A stretch of DNA of 64,000 nt, from the NCBI RefSeq assembly GCF_004010195.1, contig NC_057714.1, positions 117,620,638 to 117,684,637 of the forward strand. The letters run 5' to 3'. The stretch comes from Chiloscyllium plagiosum (taxonomy: Eukaryota). Positions 52,335 to 64,000 of the stretch are shown here, piece after piece. A program made the position numbers and the translations under genes. Below the pieces are notes generated by a model. That model was not told the origin of the DNA and ran no database searches. It saw nothing but the letters and a program-made list of their open reading frames with translations. Within the stretch, counting starts at the first letter, position 1. Each line of letters starts with the position of its first letter.

Positions 52335-52711
52335 TGGTCCTAATGAGTGCAAGCCAGAAAACTTATGACTTTTTTTCACAACATTGAAGGTGGATTAGTG
52401 TTTTGTGAGGGAGGGACACATGTAGGATCCCGAGACAGATTTGATAGTTATCTCTGCAATTTATTTCTCCGCCCTGATGCCATTCATAACACTGTCTGCC
52501 GTTTTTCTTGAGGTCAATTAAACCAGTATCACTGGTGTACTTTACTGCCAATGATAGTCAGTGTATTTAATAAGAGTCTGAAATGAGTTTATTATATAGG
52601 ATTTTTTGCCTGTCCTGACACTGGGGAAAAATATGCTCACGTACAACTTGTTTTGGTTGTGGAGAAGGTTCTAAAGACTATTTTCTTGCAATTCCTCTAC
52701 ACAAAATGCAG

Positions 52712-52989
52712 CAAAAAAGAAGTTGAGGCGGCCTTTAAAATGGATTGCTGATTGCTACCATGCTGGAATGTCAGCCAGTGAACGGAGGAGAATTCAGAAC
52801 AACTTCATGAGTGGTCAGCTGCGTATTGTGGTGGCAACAGTGGCATTTGGCATGGGATTGGATAAGTCGGATGTCCGAGGAATCATACACTATAATATAC
52901 CAAAGGGCTTTGAGAATTATGTGCAAGAAATTGGCCGTGCTGGGAGAGATGGGAAGCCTGCCCATTGCCATCTCTTCCTCGACCCAGAC
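52712..52989 (+). CDS. RECQL4: RECQL4 coding exon 16 (motifs IVa, V, VI); last exon found in the window
   Basis: [41 protein letters not shown]...[24 protein letters not shown]|GTGAGT donor, phase 1 to 0. Confidence 0.97.
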
Positions 52990-53019
52990 GTGAGTACAAA
53001 CCTGTTTTGTATTAGTTAC

Positions 53020-53220
53020 GATGTGAGGTGCTGGTGTTGGATTGGGCTGGACAAAGTCAAGTCACACGACACCAGGTCATAGTCCAACAGGTTATATGAA
53101 ATCACAAGCTTTCAGAGCGCTGCTCCTTCACCTGATGAAAGGTCAGTGCTCTGAAAGGTTTGATTTCATATTAACCTGTTGGGCTGTAACCCGGTGTTGT
53201 GTGACTTCTGACTTTGTATT
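53020..53220. mobile_element. Inverted Penelope-like pLTR pair (degenerate)
   Basis: acaaagtcaagtcacacgacaccagg and ccggtgttgtgtgacttctgactttgt arms; central CACCTGATGAAAGG. Confidence 0.7.
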
Positions 53221-53339
53221 GCTTACTTTTGAGATTTGCCCTTCTGCCTCCCTGGTGCTGGAAGCAATTACTGTGTCTCTTTGCACTGGTAGGAGGATCA
53301 TTAATAGAGAACACAGAGCAAAGTTAATTAGCAAAAGAA

Positions 53340-54742
53340 CAGTTCATTGTCCCATGAAAGTGGAGTTGCAGTTGGACAGAGTCGTAAAGCAGATGTTTGG
53401 TATGCTTGCCTTTATTAATCAGTTCATTGAGTGTCAGAGTTGAGAGGTCATGTTGCAGCTATACAGGACATTGGTTAGGTCAATTCTGTATCCAGTTCTG
53501 CTTTCCCTGCTCTGGGGAAGATGTTGTAAACCTTGAAAGGGTTCAGAAAACATTTACAAGGATGTTGCCAGGGTTGGAGAGTTTGAACGATAGGGAGAGG
53601 CTGAACAGGCTGGTGTTGTTTTCCCTGGAGTGTCAAAGGCTGAAGGGTGACATTATAGAGGTTTATAAAATTATGAGAGACATGGATAAGGTTAACAGCC
53701 AAGATCTTTTCCCCAGGAAAAGGGAATCCAAAACTAGAGAGCATAGTTGAGAGGGGTAGGATATAAAAGGGACCAAATGAGCAACTTGTTTCTGCAGAGG
53801 TTGGTGTGAATGGAATGAGCTGTCAGAGGAAGTGAGAGACTGGGACAATTGCAGCATTTAAAAGGGATCTGGATGGATATATGAATAGAAGGGTTTAAGA
53901 GGGATATGGGCCAATTGCTGACAAATGAGACGAGATTAATTTAGGATATCTGGTCAGCATGGACTGAAGGGTCTGTTTTTGTTCTATACAGTTCTATGAT
54001 CAGAGGAGAAATGATTTCTTTGTTTAACATAGAAAGGTGATATTCTCAGAAATGTATAGTCTGGAAAGGTGATGGAAGCAAAGTCAACAGCATCTTTCAG
54101 TAGGAATTTTTTTTTAAAAAGATGCAATTTGCAGGGCTGTGCTGACAGAGAATGGGACTAATTGGATAGTTCATAGAGCTAGAAGAGACACAGTGGTCCA
54201 AATGGCAATCTCCTGTGCTTATCATTCAACTGGTACAGAAACAGTCAGGTTAGCTATCTCTTTGCAGTCAGATCCTCCTGTTACTTGATGTCAGTCTGGC
54301 ATATTTCAAACAGCTGAAATAAACTGATCACGAGCAAGCCTTCAGCTGTATTTTACTTTTCCCACAAACACCAGGGACCCCCCTCCCTCTTTATTTTGTT
54401 CAGAACATAGGACCATTCAAGAGTCATAGAGATGTACAGCATGGAAACAGACCCTTCGGTCCAACTTGTCCATGCCAACCAGATATCCCAACCCAATCTA
54501 GTCCCACCTGCCAGCACCTGGCCCATATCCCTCCAAACCCTTCCTATTCATATACCCATTCAAATGCCTCTTAAATGTTGCAATTGTACCAGCCTTCACC
54601 ACTTCCTCTGGCAGCTCATTCCATACACGTACCACCCTCTGTGAAAAAGTTGCCCCTTAAATCTCTTTTATATCTTGCCCATCTCACCCTAAACCCATGT
54701 CCTCTAGCTCTGGACTCCCCAATCCCAGGGAAAAGACTTTCC
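53340..54742. mobile_element. CR1 3' fragments (+ 53340-54000, - 54420-54742)
   Basis: LERVQKTFTRMLPGLESL..RERLNRL.LFSLE..RLKGDIIEVYKIM and the standard tail. Confidence 0.8.
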
Positions 54743-55371
54743 CTTGATACCCAACAATCAGAAGGTTTGAAGAATAATTGTATAGCTGTTAATATTTTCA
54801 TTTAATGAATTAAACATATTCACATTCCCTTCCTAAATTGCAATGGAAATTGCCTATAAAAGCTTGTCAGGCTGGCCATGTGTGTGAAAAGAGTACAAGC
54901 TTTAAATGCTTGTGGAAATAGGATTTAGGATAGAAATAAAAAAATGAATGAAGTAATATTTAGAGGTATTGAGTAATAAGTTAACTGCCTTGATTCAATC
55001 ACTCTTGTTAGATACTGGAGATTAGAACTGTACCTTTACATTGATTGCAGGGGAGCCAGAAATGGAAATTCACACTGATCAAGTTTAAGCTGTTCCATTT
55101 TGTAATTAAGTGTTAATTAATGTGAAAAAGTGCCTACAATGGAAGTAAATAGACTTCCCAGCTGATAACAAAGTAATTCATGTCCTAAAATAAAAACCCA
55201 GAGAAACCAAGTAATGATGCTGAAAGATTTGTTATTATGGTAAACATTTTCTTTGGAAAACATTTCTTAAAATACTGTATAAGTAATCTGCAGTATAAAT
55301 TTGAGTGTACTTTGTTTTAAAAAAGCTTGGATAAATCAAGTTTGTTTTCTAATATCAATGTAATCACATTC

Positions 55372-56489
55372 GCCCCTGGATGGTGTCCTGGCCTGTCTCA
55401 CTGGCCCTGTGGCTGGTGTCCTGGACCGTCCCTCTGGCCCAGTGGATGGTGTCCTGGCCTGGCCCTCTGGCTCTGTGGCTGGTGTCCTGTCCTGGCCCTC
55501 TGGCCCCATGGCCCATTGGATGGTGTCCTGGCCCGTCCCTCTGGCCCCGTGGATGGTGTCCTGGCCCGTCCCTCTGGTCCCTTGGCTGGTGTCCTGGCTT
55601 GACCCTCTGGACCGTCCCTCTGGCCCCGTGGATGGTGTGGCCTTTTGGCTCCGTGGATGGTGTCCTGGCCTGGCCTTTTGGCTCCGTGGCTGGTGTCCTG
55701 GCCTGTCCCTCTGGCCCCTTGGCTGGTGTCCTGGCCTGGCCCTCTGGACCGTCCCTCTGGCCCCGTGGATGGTGTCCTGGCCTGGCCCTCTGGCCCATTT
55801 AATGGTGTCCTGGCCCGTCCCTCTGGCCCCGTGGATGGTGTCCTGGCCCGTCCCTCTGGTCCCTTGGCTGGTGTCCTGGCTTGACCCTCTGGACCGTCCC
55901 TCTGGCCCCGTGGATGGTGACCCTCTGGACCGTCCCTCTGGCCCCGTGGATGGTGTCCTGGCCTGACCCTCTGGCCTGTCCCTTTGGCCCAGTGGCAGGT
56001 GTCCTGGCCTGTCCCACTGGTCCCGTGGATGGTGTCCTGTCCTGGCCCTCTGGCCTGTCCCTCTGGCCCAGTGGATAGTGTCCTGATCTGTCCCTCTGGC
56101 CCCATGGCTGGTGTCCTAGCCCGTCCCTTTGGCCCAGTGGCTGGTGTCCTGTCCTGGCCCTCTGGCCTTTCCCTCTGGCCCAGTGGCTGATGTCCTGGCC
56201 TGTCCCTCTGGCCCAGTGGATGGTGTCCTGGCCTGGCCCTCTGGCCCACTGGATGGTGTCCTGGCCCGTCCCTCTGACCCCGTGGATGGTGTCCTGGCCC
56301 GTCCCTCTGACCCCGTGGCTGGTGTCCTGTCCTGGCCTGTCCCTCTGGCCCACTGGATGGTGTCCTGGCCTGTCCCTCTGACCCCGTGGCTGGTGTCCTG
56401 TCCTGGCCTGTCCCTCTGACCCCGTGGATGGTGTCCTGGCCCGTCCCTCTGGCCCAGTGGATGGTGTCCTGTCCTGGCCCTCTGGCTGG
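55372..56489. repeat. About 33-bp GC-rich minisatellite beginning at the MBLAC2-like stop codon
   Basis: Units GGTGTCCTGGCC(C/T)GTCCCTCTGGCCC(C/A)GTGG(A/C)T with 5-nt and sub-unit length variants over about 1.1 kb. Confidence 0.95.
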
Positions 56490-57326
56490 TCATCTGGTCA
56501 AGTGCCTCCCCCTCAGTGCTACGTTTGCCAGGCAGCCGATGGCACTGGCCGTAATCCTGTGGCAGAGCCCAGCCCGGGCCAGGTAGTCGGAGGCCAGGCT
56601 GCGCATCGTGTCGGGCCCGAAGGGGTCGAAGTGCCCGGGCAGCACGGTGTGTACCTGGCCTTGGTCCAGCAGCTCCAGGAGGTGCCTGCAGCTCCGGCGG
56701 TAATGGCCCACATTGCTGTGGGGCAGCCAGTCAATGAGAGCCCCCTGGTACAGGGTGTCCCCGGTGAACAGGAGGCCGCGCCTGGCCTCATGGAGACACA
56801 CGCTGCCCCGGGAGTGCCCGGGGGTGTGCAGCACCCGGAGCTGCTGCGTGTCCCCCAGCTCCAGCAGGTCACCGTGCTCCAGCAGGAGGCCGGCCCTGAC
56901 GGCCTGTACCCGGTAACCGCGGGCCGTCCATCCTGGGCCTGCCCCGGGAGGCGGGCGCCTCAGCTCCCGCTCGCTGAGCCAGCTGACCGCCTCGAGCTGG
57001 TCGCCGCGGGCCAGCGCCTCCGCCTCGGCGCGGTGCACCGCCACCTGGCCGCCCTCGAAGTGCCGCAGGCCGCCCGCGTGGTCGAAGTGGACGTGGGTGG
57101 CGACGGCGAGCAGCGGCCGGTGGCCGGCGAGCAGGCCGTGCCGCCGCAGGTACTCGGGCAGGCTGCCCAGGCCCAGGCCCGTGTCCACCACCACGTCCCG
57201 ATCGGAGCCCCGCAGCAGCCACATGTTCGCCCGGTTCCCCGACTCGAAGTAACGCTCCCGGATCAGGTAGAGGCCGTCAGCCAGGCGCTGGTGGTAGAAC
57301 CACTCCCCGGTGTCCGTGCCCTCCAT
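56490..57326 (-). CDS. MBLAC2: MBLAC2-like metallo-beta-lactamase-fold protein (acyl-CoA thioesterase family), intronless, 278 aa
   Basis: Colinear over its full length with human MBLAC2 as I recall it: [53 protein letters not shown] (HxHxDH), [36 protein letters not shown] in strong Kozak context (GGGATGG). Orthologue versus paralogue is not determined. Confidence 0.9.
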
Positions 57327-57632
57327 CCCCCAGAGTGACCCCGGGGAGGGGGTGGCTCCCCCAGACACTGGCCCCTTACTCCATTCACCACAGACTTGGG
57401 GAACTCTTAATCACATCTACATCTCAAACCTGGGAATAATTAATACAAACTCATCCACTCGCAGCATTTCCCGGTGGAGTGCTGTGCTGTCAGCTTTATC
57501 ACTGCTCCCTTACTGAGCACAGTGTTAAATATCACACAACACCAGGTTACAGTGCAGTCCCCCGCCCCCTCTCCCTTCGCTCTTCTGCAGTTCCCGTGTT
57601 GTGCTCCTTACAAATCAACTCTGCACTCCAGA

Positions 57633-57989
57633 ACTGAACCCATTTGCAACCCAGCGACTGCCCGCAGTGCTCTGTGTGTATTTCTGGGGGGAGGGGGGAA
57701 AGTGCACAGTGGAGCTTCCTATGGGTTGATACTGGGATTTTCTGCTCCTCCTGTTAATGCATTTAATATTCCGGATCTTGATCTGCAGGGGACAATTTTC
57801 AATTTTCCGCACTGAACCCATTTGCAAACCCAGCGACTGCCCGCAGTGCCCGTGTGTATTTCTGGGGGGAGGGGGGAAAAGTGCACAGTGGAGCTTCCTA
57901 TGGGTTGATACTGGGATTTTCTGCTCCTCCTGTTAATGCATTTAATATTCCGGATCTTGATCTGCAGGGGACAATTTTCAATTTTCCGC
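57633..57989. repeat. Near-identical tandem duplication (178 bp + 179 bp)
   Basis: 57633-57810 and 57811-57989 both run ACTGAACCCATTTGCAA...ATTTTCAATTTTCCGC. Confidence 0.95.
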
Positions 57990-58499
57990 AATGACACTAA
58001 ACTTGTTAAAATTGCAAACTGTGAGGACAGTGTGGAACTCCACACTGGGGGAGTGGAAGGATGAGGTTCAATGCAGAGAAGTGTGTGGTGATGCATCAAT
58101 AGAAAGAATAATTAATAAAGCATCCAGTTTCCCCATCCTCAGCTCAACTACCTTTAATTTGCTTCATCAAGAAGACCACACCACGAATGTGCAGAAGTAG
58201 GCAATTCAACTGTTTTGTTTTGCCATTCAGTGAGATCACGGCTGATCTGATAATCCGCAACTCTACTTTCCTGCCTTTTCATCATAATCCTTGATTCCAT
58301 TATTGATTAGAGATCTGTTTTTGTTTTAGAACATAGAGAACATAGAACAGTATAGCACAGTACAGGCCCTTCAGCCCTTAATGTTGTACCGACCTTTTAT
58401 CCTACTGTAACATCAAACTAACCTACATACCCTTCATTGTACTAACTTCCATGTATTTATCCAAGAGTTGCTTAAATGTCCCTAATGTATCTGACAGGC

Positions 58500-58625
58500 A
58501 GTGTATTCCAGAGATACAGATTCCTGATGAAGGGCTTTTGCCCGAAACGTCGATTTTGCTGCTCGTCGGATGCTGCCTGAATTGCTGTGCTCTTCCAGCA
58601 CCACTGATCCAGAAAGTGTATTCCA
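58500..58625 (+). mobile_element. Penelope-like mini insertion with intact hammerhead core, 11-bp TSD, nested in a CR1 tail
   Basis: AGTGTATTCCA at 58500-58510 and 58615-58625. CTGATGA-A-GGGC-tttt-GCCC-GAAAC-GTC at 58524-58551. Confidence 0.85.
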
Positions 58626-58747
58626 TGCACCCACCACTCTCTGACATCTCCCCTAAACCTTCCTTAAATCGCCTTAAAATTATGGTCCCTCGTGATAGAC
58701 ATTTCCGCCATGGGAAAACGTCTCTGGCTATCCACTCTATCTATGCC

Positions 58748-59140
58748 TCTCATCATCTTTAAACACCACACAACATTGTAGTCCAATGGTTTATTTGGGA
58801 GCACTAGCTTTCAGAGCGCTGCTCCTTCATCAGGTAACTAGTGGGACAGCCATCATAAGACACCAAATTTATAGCAAAAGATTAGTGTCATTCAACTGAA
58901 ATGATATATTAAACAAACCTAGCAATCTAGGTTTGTTCAATATATCACTTCAGTTTATTAAACAGTAATTTTTTGCTATACATGCTGTGTCTTATGGTCC
59001 TGCTCTACAATAACATGAAGGAGCAGCGCTCCGAAGGCTAGTGCTTCCAAATAAACCTGCTGGACTATAACCTGGTGTTGTGATTTTTAACTTGTCTACC
59101 CCAGATTAACATCAACTCCTCCACATCATCTCATCACCTT
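58748..59140. mobile_element. Palindromic Penelope-like insertion, 12-bp TSD (1 mismatch)
   Basis: TCTCATCA(T/C)CTT at 58748-58759 and 59129-59140. Arms are inverted about 58923. Minus-strand CTGATGAAGGAGCAGCGCTCTGAAAGCTAGTG at about 58802-58833. Confidence 0.8.
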
Positions 59141-59194
59141 GTACACCTCTATCAAGTCACCTCTCATCCCATTTCTCTCCAATGAGAAAATAAC

Positions 59195-60540
59195 CAGTGG
59201 AGTGCCACAACTGTGACCAGTGAGGTGCCACAAGGATCGGAGCTGGGTTCACTACTTTTTGTCATTTACATAAATGATTTGGATTCGAGCATAAGAGGTA
59301 CAGTTAGTAGGTTTGCAGATGACACCAAAATTGGAGGTGTAGTGGACAGTGAAGAAGGTTACCTCAGAGTACAACAGGATCTTGATCAGATGGGCCAATG
59401 GGCTGAGCAGTGGCAGATGGAGTTCAATTCAGATAAATGCGAGGTGCTGCATTTTGGGAAAGCAAATCTTAGCAGGACTTATACACTTAATGGTAAGTCC
59501 TAGGGAGTGCTGAACAAAGAGACCTTGGTGTGCAGGTTTATAGCTCCTTGAAAGTGGAGTTGCAGGTAGATAGGATAGTGAAGAAGGTGTTTGATTAGAT
59601 TCCCTACAGTGTGGAAACAGGCCCTTTGGCCCAACCAGTCCACACTGACCCTCCGAAGAGTAACCCACCCAGACCCATTTCCCTCTGGCTAATGCACCTA
59701 ATGCTGTGGGCAATTTAGCATGGCCAATTCACCTGACCTGCACATCTTTGGACTGTGGGAGGAAACCGGAGTACCCAGAGGAAACCCACGCAGACACAGA
59801 GAGAATGTACAAACTCCACACAGTCACCCGAGGCTGGAATCGAACCTGGGATCGTGGTGCTGTGTGGCAGCAGTGCTAACCACTGAGCCACCGTACCACC
59901 TCCTTTATTGGTCAGAGTATTGAGTACAGGAGTTGGGAGGTCATGTTGCGGCTGTACAGGACATTGGTTAGGCCAGTGTTGGAATATTGTGGGCAATTCT
60001 GGTCTCCTTCCTATCGGAAAGATGTTGTGAAACTTGAAAGGGTTCAGAAAAGATTTACAAGGATGTTGCCAGGGTTGGAGGATTTGAGCTATAGGGAGAG
60101 GTTGAATAGGCTGGGGCTGTTTTCCCTGGAGTGTCGGAGGCTGAGGGTTGACCTTATAGAAGTTTATAGAGGGGCATGGATAGGGTAAATAGACAAAGTA
60201 TTTTCCCTGGGGTGGAGGAGACCAGAACTAGAGGGCATAGGTTTAGGATGAGAGAGGGCATAGGTTTAGGGTGAGAGGGGAAAGATATAAAAGAGACCTA
60301 AGGGGTAACTTTTTCACGCAGAGGATGGTATCTGTATGGAATGAGCTGCCAGAGGATGTGGTGGAGGCTGGTACAATTGCAATATTTGAAAGGCATCTGA
60401 ATGAGTATATGAATAGGAAGGGTTTGGAGGGATATGGGCTGGGTACTGGCAGGTGGGACTAGATTGGGTTGGGATATCTAGTCGGCATGGATGAGTTGGA
60501 CTGAAGGGTCTATTTCTGTGCTGTACATCTGTATGACTTT
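59195..60540 (+). mobile_element. CR1 (HER1-like) RT to 3' end, with a nested HE1 SINE (-, 59592-59895)
   Basis: VPQGSELGSLLFVIYINDL, RFADDTKIGG, LYRTLVRPVLEYCGQFWSP, FFTQRMVSVWNELP. Confidence 0.9.
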
Positions 60541-60544
60541 ATAG

Positions 60545-62430
60545 CCTAGCTCCCTTTCTTCATAAGACATGCCCTCCAGTTCAGGCAGCATCCTGGTAAA
60601 TCTCCTCAGTGCTCTCCTGGTAAATCTCCTCTCAAGCTTCCACATCTTTCCTATAATGAGGCAACCAAAAAGGAACACAATATTCCAAGTATGGTCTAAC
60701 CAGGACTCTATAGATCTGCAGGGTTTAAATCAGTGGTGCTGGAAAAAAGGCGTCTATTCCTGATGAAGGGCTTTTGCCCAAAATGTCAATTTTCCTGCTC
60801 CTCTGATGCTGCCTGACCTGCTGTGCTTTTTCAGCACCACTCTGATCTAAACTCTGGTTTCCAGCATCTGCAGTCCTCACTTTGCTTCTATAGAGCTGCA
60901 GCATAACCTTACAGCTCTTAAAATCAATCCCCTGGCTAATGAAAGGTAACACACCATACATTTTCTTAACTTGGGTGACAACTTTGAGGGATCTGTGCTA
61001 TGGGTGTGGACTCCAAGATCCCTCTGTTCCTCCACTCTGCCAAGAATCCTGTCTTTAGCACTGTTTTCTCCATTCAAATTTGACCTTCCAAAGTGAACTC
61101 CATCTGCCACTTTTCAGCCCAGTTCTGCATCCTGTCAATGTCCTGTTGCAACCTATAGAAGCCTTCCACACTATCCACTATTCCACCAACCTTCGTGTCA
61201 TTGGCAAACTTACTAACCCTCCCTTCCACTTCCTCATCCAAGTCATTTATAAAAATCACAAAGAGCAAACGTCCCAGAACAGATCCCTGTATATCACCAC
61301 TGGTTGTCAAGCTCCCGGCTGAATACTTTCCATCTACCACCACTCTCTGTCGTCTATGAGCTAGTCAATTCTGTATCCAGACAGCTAGATTTCCCTGTAT
61401 CCCATGCCTCCTTACTTTCTGAATCAGCCTACCATGGGAAACCTTGCTAAAATCTAAATGTGCCACATCCACTGCTTTACCGTCATCAATGTGTTTTGTC
61501 ATATCCTGAACAAATTTGGTAAGGCTTGTGAGGCATGACCTGCAACCCCCCCACCCCACCCCAGCCAAAGCCATGCTGACTATGTCTAATCGAACAGTAG
61601 TTTTCCAAGTAGTCATAAATCCTGTCTCTCAGAATCCTCTCCAGTACTTTGCCCACCACAGACATGAGACTGACTAGTCTGTAATTCCCAGGATTATCCC
61701 TATACCTATCTTGAAGAAGGGAATAACATTTGCCACCCTCCAATCATTTGGCACTATTCCAGTGGAGAGTGAGGATGCAAAGATCATTCCCAAGATGCAG
61801 CAATCTCTTCCCTCACTTCCTGCAGTAACCTAGGGTATATCCCATCTGGTCCCATTTATTTATCATCAATCATGGTGTTTCAAACTTTTCAGCACATCCT
61901 CCTTAACGTCAACCTGTTTGAGCTGTTTCATGCTGTCCTCAGAAATGTCAAGGTCCCTCTCAGTAGTGAATACTGAAGCAAAGTATTCATTAAAGCTTCC
62001 CCTACCACCTCTGACTCCAGACACAAGTTCCCTCCACTACCCTCACTCTGGCCATCCTCTTGTTCCTCACATAAATGTAGAGTTTTGAATACAAATAATG
62101 ACCCAGCTTCTATAGCTCTCTGCAGTAAAGAATTCCACAGAATCATTACCCTCAGAAGAAATTCATCCTCATCTCTGTTGTAAATTGGTGACCTGTGATT
62201 GTGAGATTATGCCCTACAGTCTTCAACACTTCCACAATGGGAAACAACCTTTTTGCATCTACATTGTCAAGTTCCCTAACAGGGTTGTATGTATCAATAA
62301 GGTCACCCTTCATTATTCTATATTTCAACTCATAAGAAAATCCCACCATCCTAGTATCAGCCTCGTGAACCATCCCTGCACTGCCTCCAATGCTAGTATA
62401 ATTTTCCTTATCTAAGTTTTTCAGCTGTGA
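60545..62430 (-). mobile_element. Decayed CR1 copies, with a Penelope-like insertion at 60707-60901 (15-bp TSD, 1 mismatch)
   Basis: NPGNYRLVSLMSVVGKVLE, QGSVLGRLLFVIFINDL, KFANDTKVGG. TCTATAGA(T/G)CTGCAG at 60707-60721 and 60887-60901. Confidence 0.8.
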
Positions 62431-62450
62431 TATTGACTTGTGCCTGTATG

Positions 62451-62686
62451 TGAAATAACTCCACACAGGATGGAATCCCATCACCAAGTCACCCTTTATT
62501 GACATGTGGAAAGGCATTGACACTGATGCAGCTTCTTTAGAGCCGGCTGTCAGAGCGAACAGAACCGCTGACAGTCCTGTTTATATCTGTCGGCCAGGGC
62601 TCCCTGTTTCAACCTCATTAACAGTCCCAATCAGGGAACTCATACTTTATGAAGTCCATCTGGCTGACCTCGTTACGATCACTACA
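62451..62686 (-). mobile_element. Solo LTR (236 bp, probably Gypsy-type)
   Basis: Minus strand starts TGTAGTG and ends TTATTTCA, with internal GATTGG, TATAAA and AATAAA in the expected order. 5-bp flanks GTATG and GTATA. Interrupts a CR1 fragment. Confidence 0.7.
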
Positions 62687-64000
62687 GTATAGTTCTAGCA
62701 AAAGGTCCTTACTTTTATACTCCATTTCCCTTGGAATAAAGACCATTTTCTTTATCTGCTAAATTTGAATGCTAGCTTTTTTGTGATTCATTGATCAGGA
62801 CTCCCAAGCATCTTGAGCATTTAAATAGTATTCAGCTCCTCCTCTTCCTACCCAAATGTATAACCTTACATTTCCCCATTTCTCCATTGGCCAAGTTTTT
62901 GGTCATTTGTTTAACCCATCTATATCTCTGTGAAGACTGTGTCTTCATCACTACTTGCTTTCCCACCTATTTTTGTGTCATCCACAAACTTGGCTGTAGT
63001 GCATTCACATCCCTCATCCAAGCCATTAATATAGATGGTAAATTATTGTGGCCCCAGCACTGATCCCTGTGGCACACTATCAGTTCAGGATCAATGACCT
63101 CTGTCCATCTCAAGGTCAGAAGTGGGAATATCTACTGATTGCATAATTGTCAATGTCATTGTAACTCTTCAGATATTGAAGCAGCCTATGTTTCCATGCC
63201 ACAAGGTCTGGACAATATACAGGCTTAGACCAACCATTGGTAAATGACATTACCTGGCACCTGGTTACATGATTAGTCATGCTACACATCACCCGTGACA
63301 TTCAGTGGCATTGCCATTGCTAATTCCCCCACCATCAAAATCCTGGGGTTGACCATTGAACAGCAATTGAACTGGACTAGCCCTATAATTGCAATGGCTA
63401 CAAGTGAAGCCAGAAGCTAAGAATCCTGCAGCAAAAAGGTCTCCTCCTGAGCCTGTCCACAAGGCACAAGTCAGGAATATGCACAGTTGCCTGGAAAGAG
63501 TGCAGCTTCACCAGAAGTTTGGCACCATCCAGGACAAAGCAGCACACTTGATTGGCACAACATTCACAAACATTCAGTCTTTCCATGATGCTTAGTAGTA
63601 CTAGTAGTGTGTACCACCCACAAGATGCACTGCAGAAATTCACCAAAGCTCCTTTTGACAACATCCTTCAAAATCACAACCGTTCAGTAGGACAACGGCA
63701 GCAGATACTTGGGAGCACCACCAACCACAATTCTCCCCCACAACCGCCCCCTCCCACTCAAAGCCACTCATCTTCCAGATTTGGAAATATATTGCAATTC
63801 CTTAGTGTGGCCAGGTCAACGTTCTGAAACTTTCCGAAACGATATTGTAGGTCTGCTGAGACCAGATACCCGGCAGTGGTTCAAGAAGGTAGCCACCCAC
63901 CATCTTCTCTAAAACAACTAGGGATAGGCATTAAATGGTGGTTCAACCAGTGACATCCGCATCCTGTGTATGAACAAAGAGGACATGAGTAAGGAGGTGA

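Follow-up and report, generated by a model that had tools for sequence, protein, structure and literature searches.

An intact, probable MBLAC2 retrogene nested in a RECQL4 intron of a bamboo shark, and the altered metal site of its parent gene

On the opposite strand within an intron of RECQL4, the bamboo shark Chiloscyllium plagiosum carries an intronless MBLAC2 gene (56490..57326, minus strand; coordinates are those of the whole 64,000-nucleotide stretch analysed, the window) that we identify as a functional retrogene. Four of the five features considered were found: an intron-containing parent gene that occupies the ancestral syntenic position, precise removal of the parental intron, purifying selection and transcription. 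Taking the sequence comparisons together, we think it probable, with some reservation, that this is an intact, transcribed retrogene of early shark or shark–ray origin that likely supplies the ancestral two-zinc hydrolase activity, with the parent in a different role.

The nested open reading frame (ORF) translates without interruption into 278 amino acids plus a stop codon, has a good start context and is MBLAC2 by every sequence test applied. Its protein matches the Lactamase_B family (PF00753) with 81.2 bits against a cut-off of 22.7, and its AlphaFold2 model (mean pLDDT 85.2) has the metallo-beta-lactamase (MBL) fold, for which Foldseek returned generic MBL matches only. The closest named relatives are shark ‘MBLAC2-like’ proteins (60–82% identity), followed by vertebrate MBLAC2 (51–59%), and in trees the protein falls inside the vertebrate MBLAC2 clade; its identity to sheep MBLAC2 is 60%, versus 63% for the parent. 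Alignment with the 279-amino-acid mammalian protein, following the MBLAC2 numbering in the accessible part of PMC7949124, predicts the zinc ligands H78, H80, D82, H83, H171, D190 and H232. The first four form an intact HxHxDH motif (57078..57095, minus strand), which reads NxRxDH in the syntenic parent. Cys255 (56562..56564, minus strand) is the equivalent of Cys254, described there as palmitoylated. The translation, Pfam score and alignment thus bear out the initial annotation, which had described an intact 278-codon frame with the metal ligands and a C-terminal cysteine.

That annotation had also remarked on the base composition of the ORF, and the figures agree: GC is 0.714, GC3 0.907 and the observed/expected (O/E) CpG ratio 0.74, compared with GC 0.437 and CpG O/E 0.29 for the window and 0.397 and 0.11 for the intron stretch 52990–55371. 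The CpG ratio is 0.90 over codons 1–151, the part matching parent exon 1, and 0.50 over codons 153–278, the part matching exon 2, values that would be compatible with the germline hypomethylation suggested in the initial annotation. Because GC3 of the exon-2-matching part is 0.88 in the nested gene and 0.41 in the parent, the copy must have gained GC after it moved.

A full-length RECQL4 protein aligns by tblastn in 15 blocks within the window (15732 to 52989) and in 8 more beyond it (window-equivalent 73967 to 86993). The fifteenth block, the last within the window, is a coding exon (52711..52989, plus strand) ending in a GT donor 3.5 kb from the nested ORF, and spliced contigs end exactly at 52989. 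About 10 kb past the window an AG acceptor precedes the next exon, which opens at window-equivalent 73967, and seven more follow it to the last codon. The intervening plus-strand intron is 20,977 nt in total (52990..64000 is the part within the window), the longest of the 22 RECQL4 introns, the next longest being 5,702 nt. MBLAC2 is therefore truly nested antisense in a RECQL4 intron with host exons on both sides; the window does lack a further RECQL4 exon after the donor, as had been pointed out, and RECQL4 does go on beyond the locus.

The parent is a two-exon MBLAC2 gene with an intact ORF in the same genome (G000:C2:47271743-47280249; loci L002 and L003). Its 7.7-kb phase-1 intron, with GT and AG ends, splits a glycine codon after the first base (G|GT). 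The nested copy reads CAC GGT GAC across this site, without interruption at the Gly152 codon (56871..56873, minus strand), an intronless state that was seen in the DNA of this genome only and involves one parental intron. Exact loss of the parent’s single intron makes the copy a probable retrogene; neither a poly(A) remnant nor a target-site duplication would be expected to persist in a copy this old. The intron is ancestral, because four truncated vertebrate isoforms, from human, a rodent, a marsupial and a frog, diverge from the alignment at the residue where it lies; human MBLAC2 has an intron in its coding region. CETN3 exons lie downstream of the parent, and an exon of POLR3G (RPC7) lies 71 kb upstream on the opposite strand. 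This 40-amino-acid first coding exon was identified by a PDB sequence search, a Pfam search having given no match for it. CETN3–MBLAC2–POLR3G is also the human arrangement, according to the accessible text of PMC10605170. A second, intron-containing MBLAC2 beside POLR3G, which the initial annotation had suggested looking for, is thus present. MBLAC2 and the POLR3G first coding exon stand head to head, 71 kb apart (G000:C2:47280249-47351447), a gap that a non-coding first exon may bridge. Besides NxRxDH in place of HxHxDH, the parent protein carries W119C, and from its sequence is likely to be a one-zinc variant or pseudo-enzyme.

Four decayed, intronless-looking MBLAC2-like fragments occur elsewhere in the genome: L035 (C15:39717140), L036 (C30:37236638), L037 (C37:23475425), which crosses the exon junction, and L038 (C15:44296418). 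In score they are nearer to queries of the nested or ancestral type than to the parent; they may be further retrocopies, derived from the retrogene itself, or its old siblings.

The nested gene is transcribed. In run X5 a single contig spans 56490–57620 at a depth of 13.8, versus 9.1 on the RECQL4 exon and 0 on unique intron, although contig depths are a poor measure of expression. Another X5 contig, of 1,207 nt, fits exon 52711–52989 exactly, its other 928 letters coming from elsewhere; this exact fit, together with the absence of unique intron, marks X5 as spliced RNA. A contig of run X10 also ends at 52989. In run X1 the nested gene reaches a depth of 28.3, the RECQL4 exon has depth 0, and the nested sequence is reproduced with 2 differences; this run may be a CpG-enriched DNA library rather than spliced RNA. 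The X1 and X5 contigs that span leader and ORF define a non-coding 5′ leader at least as long as 57327..57620 (minus strand) with several short upstream ATGs, and we infer that the gene’s own promoter lies upstream of 57620. Six minus-strand upstream ATGs fall in or near the leader (57384–57643), each opening a short frame of 1–16 codons, and a 179-bp tandem duplication with a 97% match (57633–57994) lies just upstream of it, in the likely promoter region.

Three nucleotides past the stop codon begins a GC-rich minisatellite based on a 33-bp unit (55372..56486), likely within the 3′ untranslated region, with reads beyond it. This 1.1-kb repeat is CpG-poor (O/E 0.20) and is the source of several long spurious ORFs. 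Poly(A) single-cell reads of run X16, which are few and drawn from about 2 in 100 of the run, pile on 55204–55365, where first mates map exclusively to the plus strand (depths 13.7 and 8.8, versus 0). Such a strand pattern agrees with the 3′ end of an RNA transcribed from the minus strand through the minisatellite, making 55204..55365 (minus strand) the likely 3′ end region of the retrogene mRNA. No canonical AATAAA signal was found near 55200–55370, and internal priming is a possible source of the pile. The ORF body drew no X16 or X17 reads in the roughly 2 and 6 in 100 of these 3′-biased libraries that were sampled.

Nested-type proteins are on record in ten other sharks, galeomorph and squalomorph: two Chiloscyllium/Hemiscyllium relatives, Rhincodon, Stegostoma, Mustelus, two Scyliorhinus, Heterodontus, Pristiophorus and Heptranchias. 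The suggestion that this was a lineage-specific second MBLAC2 is thereby overturned. The nested-type protein and RECQL4 are on a same-length record in all eight sharks that could be tested (S. canicula and Pristiophorus fell outside the test), which is co-location by record and not a view of gene structure. In six sharks the two have adjacent or near accessions, for example chiPu_0018079/78, scyTo_0015669/68, XP_067871837/838 and XP_060681204/202. Among the proteins listed (the best 120 of 289 and the best 120 of 215), no nested-type protein was found for Carcharodon, Cetorhinus, seven named rays or Callorhinchus, an absence from protein lists that is weak evidence for rays, lamniforms and the chimaera alike. 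The lamniforms Carcharodon and Cetorhinus (P0043 and P0273) have only the parent among the proteins listed, with its ligands intact, and their relatives have the nested copy, which was likely lost secondarily in lamniforms. Rays and lamniforms apparently live with the derived parent alone.

In trees of 40 and 44 proteins the nested clade (support 90/89) is sister to a clade of shark parents and ray genes (99/88), the two together are supported at 99/98, and Callorhinchus falls outside. Approximately unbiased (AU) tests, whose hypotheses were chosen after the tree was seen, reject a clade of all shark copies without rays (p 0.012), a nested plus Callorhinchus clade (p 0.027) and a clade of shark parents alone (p 0.029). 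In the tree the duplication falls later than the chimaera split, an older duplicate being rejected by the second of these tests, and probably earlier than the parting of sharks and rays. Sharks are monophyletic, and because rejection of the shark-parent clade clashes with this, the pre-shark–ray date is probable, not firm. Comparing the two copies of a species one gene half at a time revealed no clear trace of gene conversion (78 and 81% identity in Heptranchias).

The nested ORF is under purifying selection. The X5 and window versions differ by 8 synonymous changes over 221 sites and 7 non-synonymous changes over 613 sites, 15 positions in all, and this one pair gives a dN/dS of 0.31 (Fisher p 0.033). 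X5 shows no indels in the 837-nt ORF versus 9 in the next 294 nt, which also carry at least 18 substitutions. X5 is not independent of record P0241, because its six amino-acid changes are identical to those of that record. With the parental intron absent, this constraint upholds the earlier proposal of a retroposed, still-constrained paralogue.

Both copies have diverged, in a way that depends on lineage. Of 118 deeply conserved positions, C. plagiosum has lost 16 in the nested copy and 13 in the parent. The nested losses near the ligands and active site include M167T, V190T, Y202H and D207H, which set the copy apart from human MBLAC2, as do its lack of an intron, its position in RECQL4 rather than by POLR3G and its being one of two; it resembles the human protein in about 60% of residues, the seven predicted ligands, the Cys254 equivalent, the SGNRAN loop and the MBL fold. 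In slowly evolving lineages the nested gene is, by the same counts, clearly the conservative copy (4 positions lost versus 8 in the parent in Heptranchias, 4 versus 6 in Pristiophorus, 8 versus 11 in Heterodontus and 9–10 versus 16–17 in Scyliorhinus), whereas carpet sharks show the reverse (15–16 versus 10–13). The drift of the carpet-shark nested copy goes largely with a shift to GC-rich codons (GARP 0.36, versus 0.24). Since the nested copy evolves faster overall in C. plagiosum, it may have changed substrate too. The parent does not appear to be decaying: it is intact in all 11 two-copy species, and two Chiloscyllium records differ at 5 of 278 positions in the parent and 6 of 278 in the nested copy.

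Human MBLAC2 is predicted to bind Zn1 through H83, H85, H170 and D189 and Zn2 through D87, H88, D189 and H231; palmitoyl-CoA hydrolysis is lost in the D87A and H88A mutants, and alanine at each of the remaining five ligands, H83A and H85A included, gave insoluble protein (PMC7949124, accessible sections). We compared these positions across 33 chondrichthyan and 64 named bony-vertebrate full-length cluster representatives, leaving aside fused, partial, unnamed and invertebrate matches. All seven ligands are kept in 11 of 11 nested copies, in 63 of 64 bony-vertebrate clusters (none has a substitution, the remaining one having a gap) and in 11 of 11 proteins of species without a nested record, one of which is an unnamed skate-like cluster. 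By contrast, in species that have both genes, nine of 11 parents show changed ligands. In human numbering, H83N occurs by itself in the parents of Rhincodon and Stegostoma and together with H85R in those of the three bamboo sharks, C. plagiosum among them; the parent has D87E in Mustelus and both Scyliorhinus, and D87N in Heptranchias. In Heterodontus and Pristiophorus both copies have all ligands. The parent tree shows three independent ligand changes, and an independent-pairs test of the association found one pair on starred branches (p 1) and so had no power. N28 of the SGNRAN (S-x-N) loop is kept in 11 of 11 nested and 63 of 64 bony-vertebrate proteins but is missing from all 21 proteins of the parent lineage, those of rays among them, indicating that divergence of the parent set in soon after the two copies arose.

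The C. plagiosum parent has lost two Zn1 histidines and keeps all four Zn2 ligands. The accessible text of PMC5018959 describes B2 metallo-beta-lactamases, such as CphA, as active with one zinc and with Asn at the first ligand. As Asn is normal at this position in active enzymes, the parent need not be dead. The carpet-shark parent (NxHxDH) resembles them in this His-to-Asn change at the first motif position. B2 enzymes, however, need His118, the second histidine, and Cys221, whereas in the C. plagiosum parent Arg replaces the second His and the Zn2 ligands are of the B3 type, so that they are an analogy for the parent and not functional homologues. By this analogy the parent may be either a changed one-zinc enzyme or a pseudo-enzyme.

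We hypothesize that mRNA of the MBLAC2 gene in the CETN3–MBLAC2–POLR3G neighbourhood would have been reverse-transcribed into the RECQL4 intron, where the retrocopy would have acquired a promoter of its own. Once two active copies existed, the parent could have been freed to alter its metal site three times independently: through H83N followed by H85R in carpet sharks, and at D87 in ground sharks (D87E) and in the sevengill (D87N). It would have stayed intact and conserved and taken a different, one-zinc or non-catalytic, role, the work being divided between two copies and the parent not being lost. More tentatively, and with some doubt on our part, the jobs of MBLAC2 might be split cleanly, the retrogene performing two-zinc catalysis and the parent having become a conserved pseudo-enzyme three times, which would reveal a non-catalytic function.

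Several observations would sit as well with an ordinary functional retrogene in a new or tissue-restricted role, the parent being the main enzyme and its ligand changes either tolerated or a one-zinc switch unrelated to the copy. The nested protein has drifted more in carpet sharks, towards GC-rich codons; the parent is as conserved as the copy between close species; the C. plagiosum parent retains its Zn2 ligands, for which the B2 enzymes in the accessible part of PMC5018959 offer a one-zinc precedent; and two species have both sites intact. We nevertheless regard this account as rather unlikely: the ligand changes occur only in parents coexisting with a nested copy (9 of 11, versus 0 of 11, and none in 64 bony-vertebrate clusters), D87, essential in the human enzyme in the accessible account of PMC7949124, was changed twice independently, and H85R finds no precedent in the B2 enzymes described in PMC5018959, where His118 is required. 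That the copy instead arose at the DNA level, by whole-genome or segmental duplication, and later lost its single intron and came into RECQL4 would take one intron loss. Such an origin is improbable, as no CETN3 or POLR3G paralogue was seen beside the copy in the window and the next 30 kb, which hold RECQL4 exons, the clade with Callorhinchus expected of an older duplicate was rejected, and the dispersed decayed copies show that this mRNA was retroposed repeatedly.

We likewise give little credence to the possibility that the locus is kept mainly as an antisense CpG-island transcript regulating or interfering with RECQL4. Its antisense position, its CpG-rich 5′ half and the contrast between the two genes in run X1 would suit such a regulator, yet it is the protein that is under selection, with a dN/dS of 0.31, no frameshifts and all ligands conserved in 11 of 11 nested copies, and nested and RECQL4 RNAs are both present in run X5, which leaves the transcriptional interference raised in the initial annotation unsupported. 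We reject a processed pseudogene or assembly artefact as scarcely credible; the intronless structure, and nothing else, speaks for it, against an ORF that is intact in 11 species, transcribed and constrained and whose sequence run X1 reproduces.

The functional retrogene that we favour is not an orphan retrogene, because its parent survives. It shares with that class (PMC3548309 and PMC4772013, both in their accessible parts) a retrocopy that appears to carry the ancestral function and a CpG-rich 5′ part, which the latter reports for most of them, but the shark parent has been neither lost nor pseudogenised; it is intact and conserved, with its metal site altered in three independent lineages. 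For gene evolution this would be a case between coexistence and orphan replacement, in which a very old retrogene appears to have repeatedly released a living parent from catalytic constraint. NCBI shark models named ‘acyl-coenzyme A thioesterase MBLAC2-like’ are the same gene, auto-annotated, and supply names only. In the literature consulted we found no description of the origin, the nesting or the reciprocal active-site pattern, although the supplementary retrocopy tables of PMC13320880, beyond its accessible text, might list the copy.

The physiological role of MBLAC2 is unsettled. The accessible parts of the respective reports describe the human protein as an S-palmitoylated acyl-CoA thioesterase (PMC7949124) and as a nucleolar rRNA-processing factor whose effects are attenuated by a catalytic mutant (bioRxiv 10.64898/2026.07.31.742021), and place MBLAC2 in the rDNA damage response and the silencing of rDNA breaks (PMC13039405, in which part no catalytic test of MBLAC2 appeared); it is also an HDAC-inhibitor off-target. 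Sharks offer natural, long-conserved variants at exactly the ligands concerned, together with an intact sister copy, making catalytic and non-catalytic roles directly testable. If the proposed division of labour holds, the two genes would be a natural separation-of-function pair bearing on whether MBLAC2 acts as a thioesterase on lipids, as a nuclease in the nucleolus or as a scaffold. The part worth testing is the reciprocal active-site pattern, the parent’s altered metal site having had no place in the initial annotation. The palmitoylated cysteine also varies on occasion: it is replaced by Trp in the S. canicula nested copy and by Tyr in the Narcine gene (P0005 and P0034).
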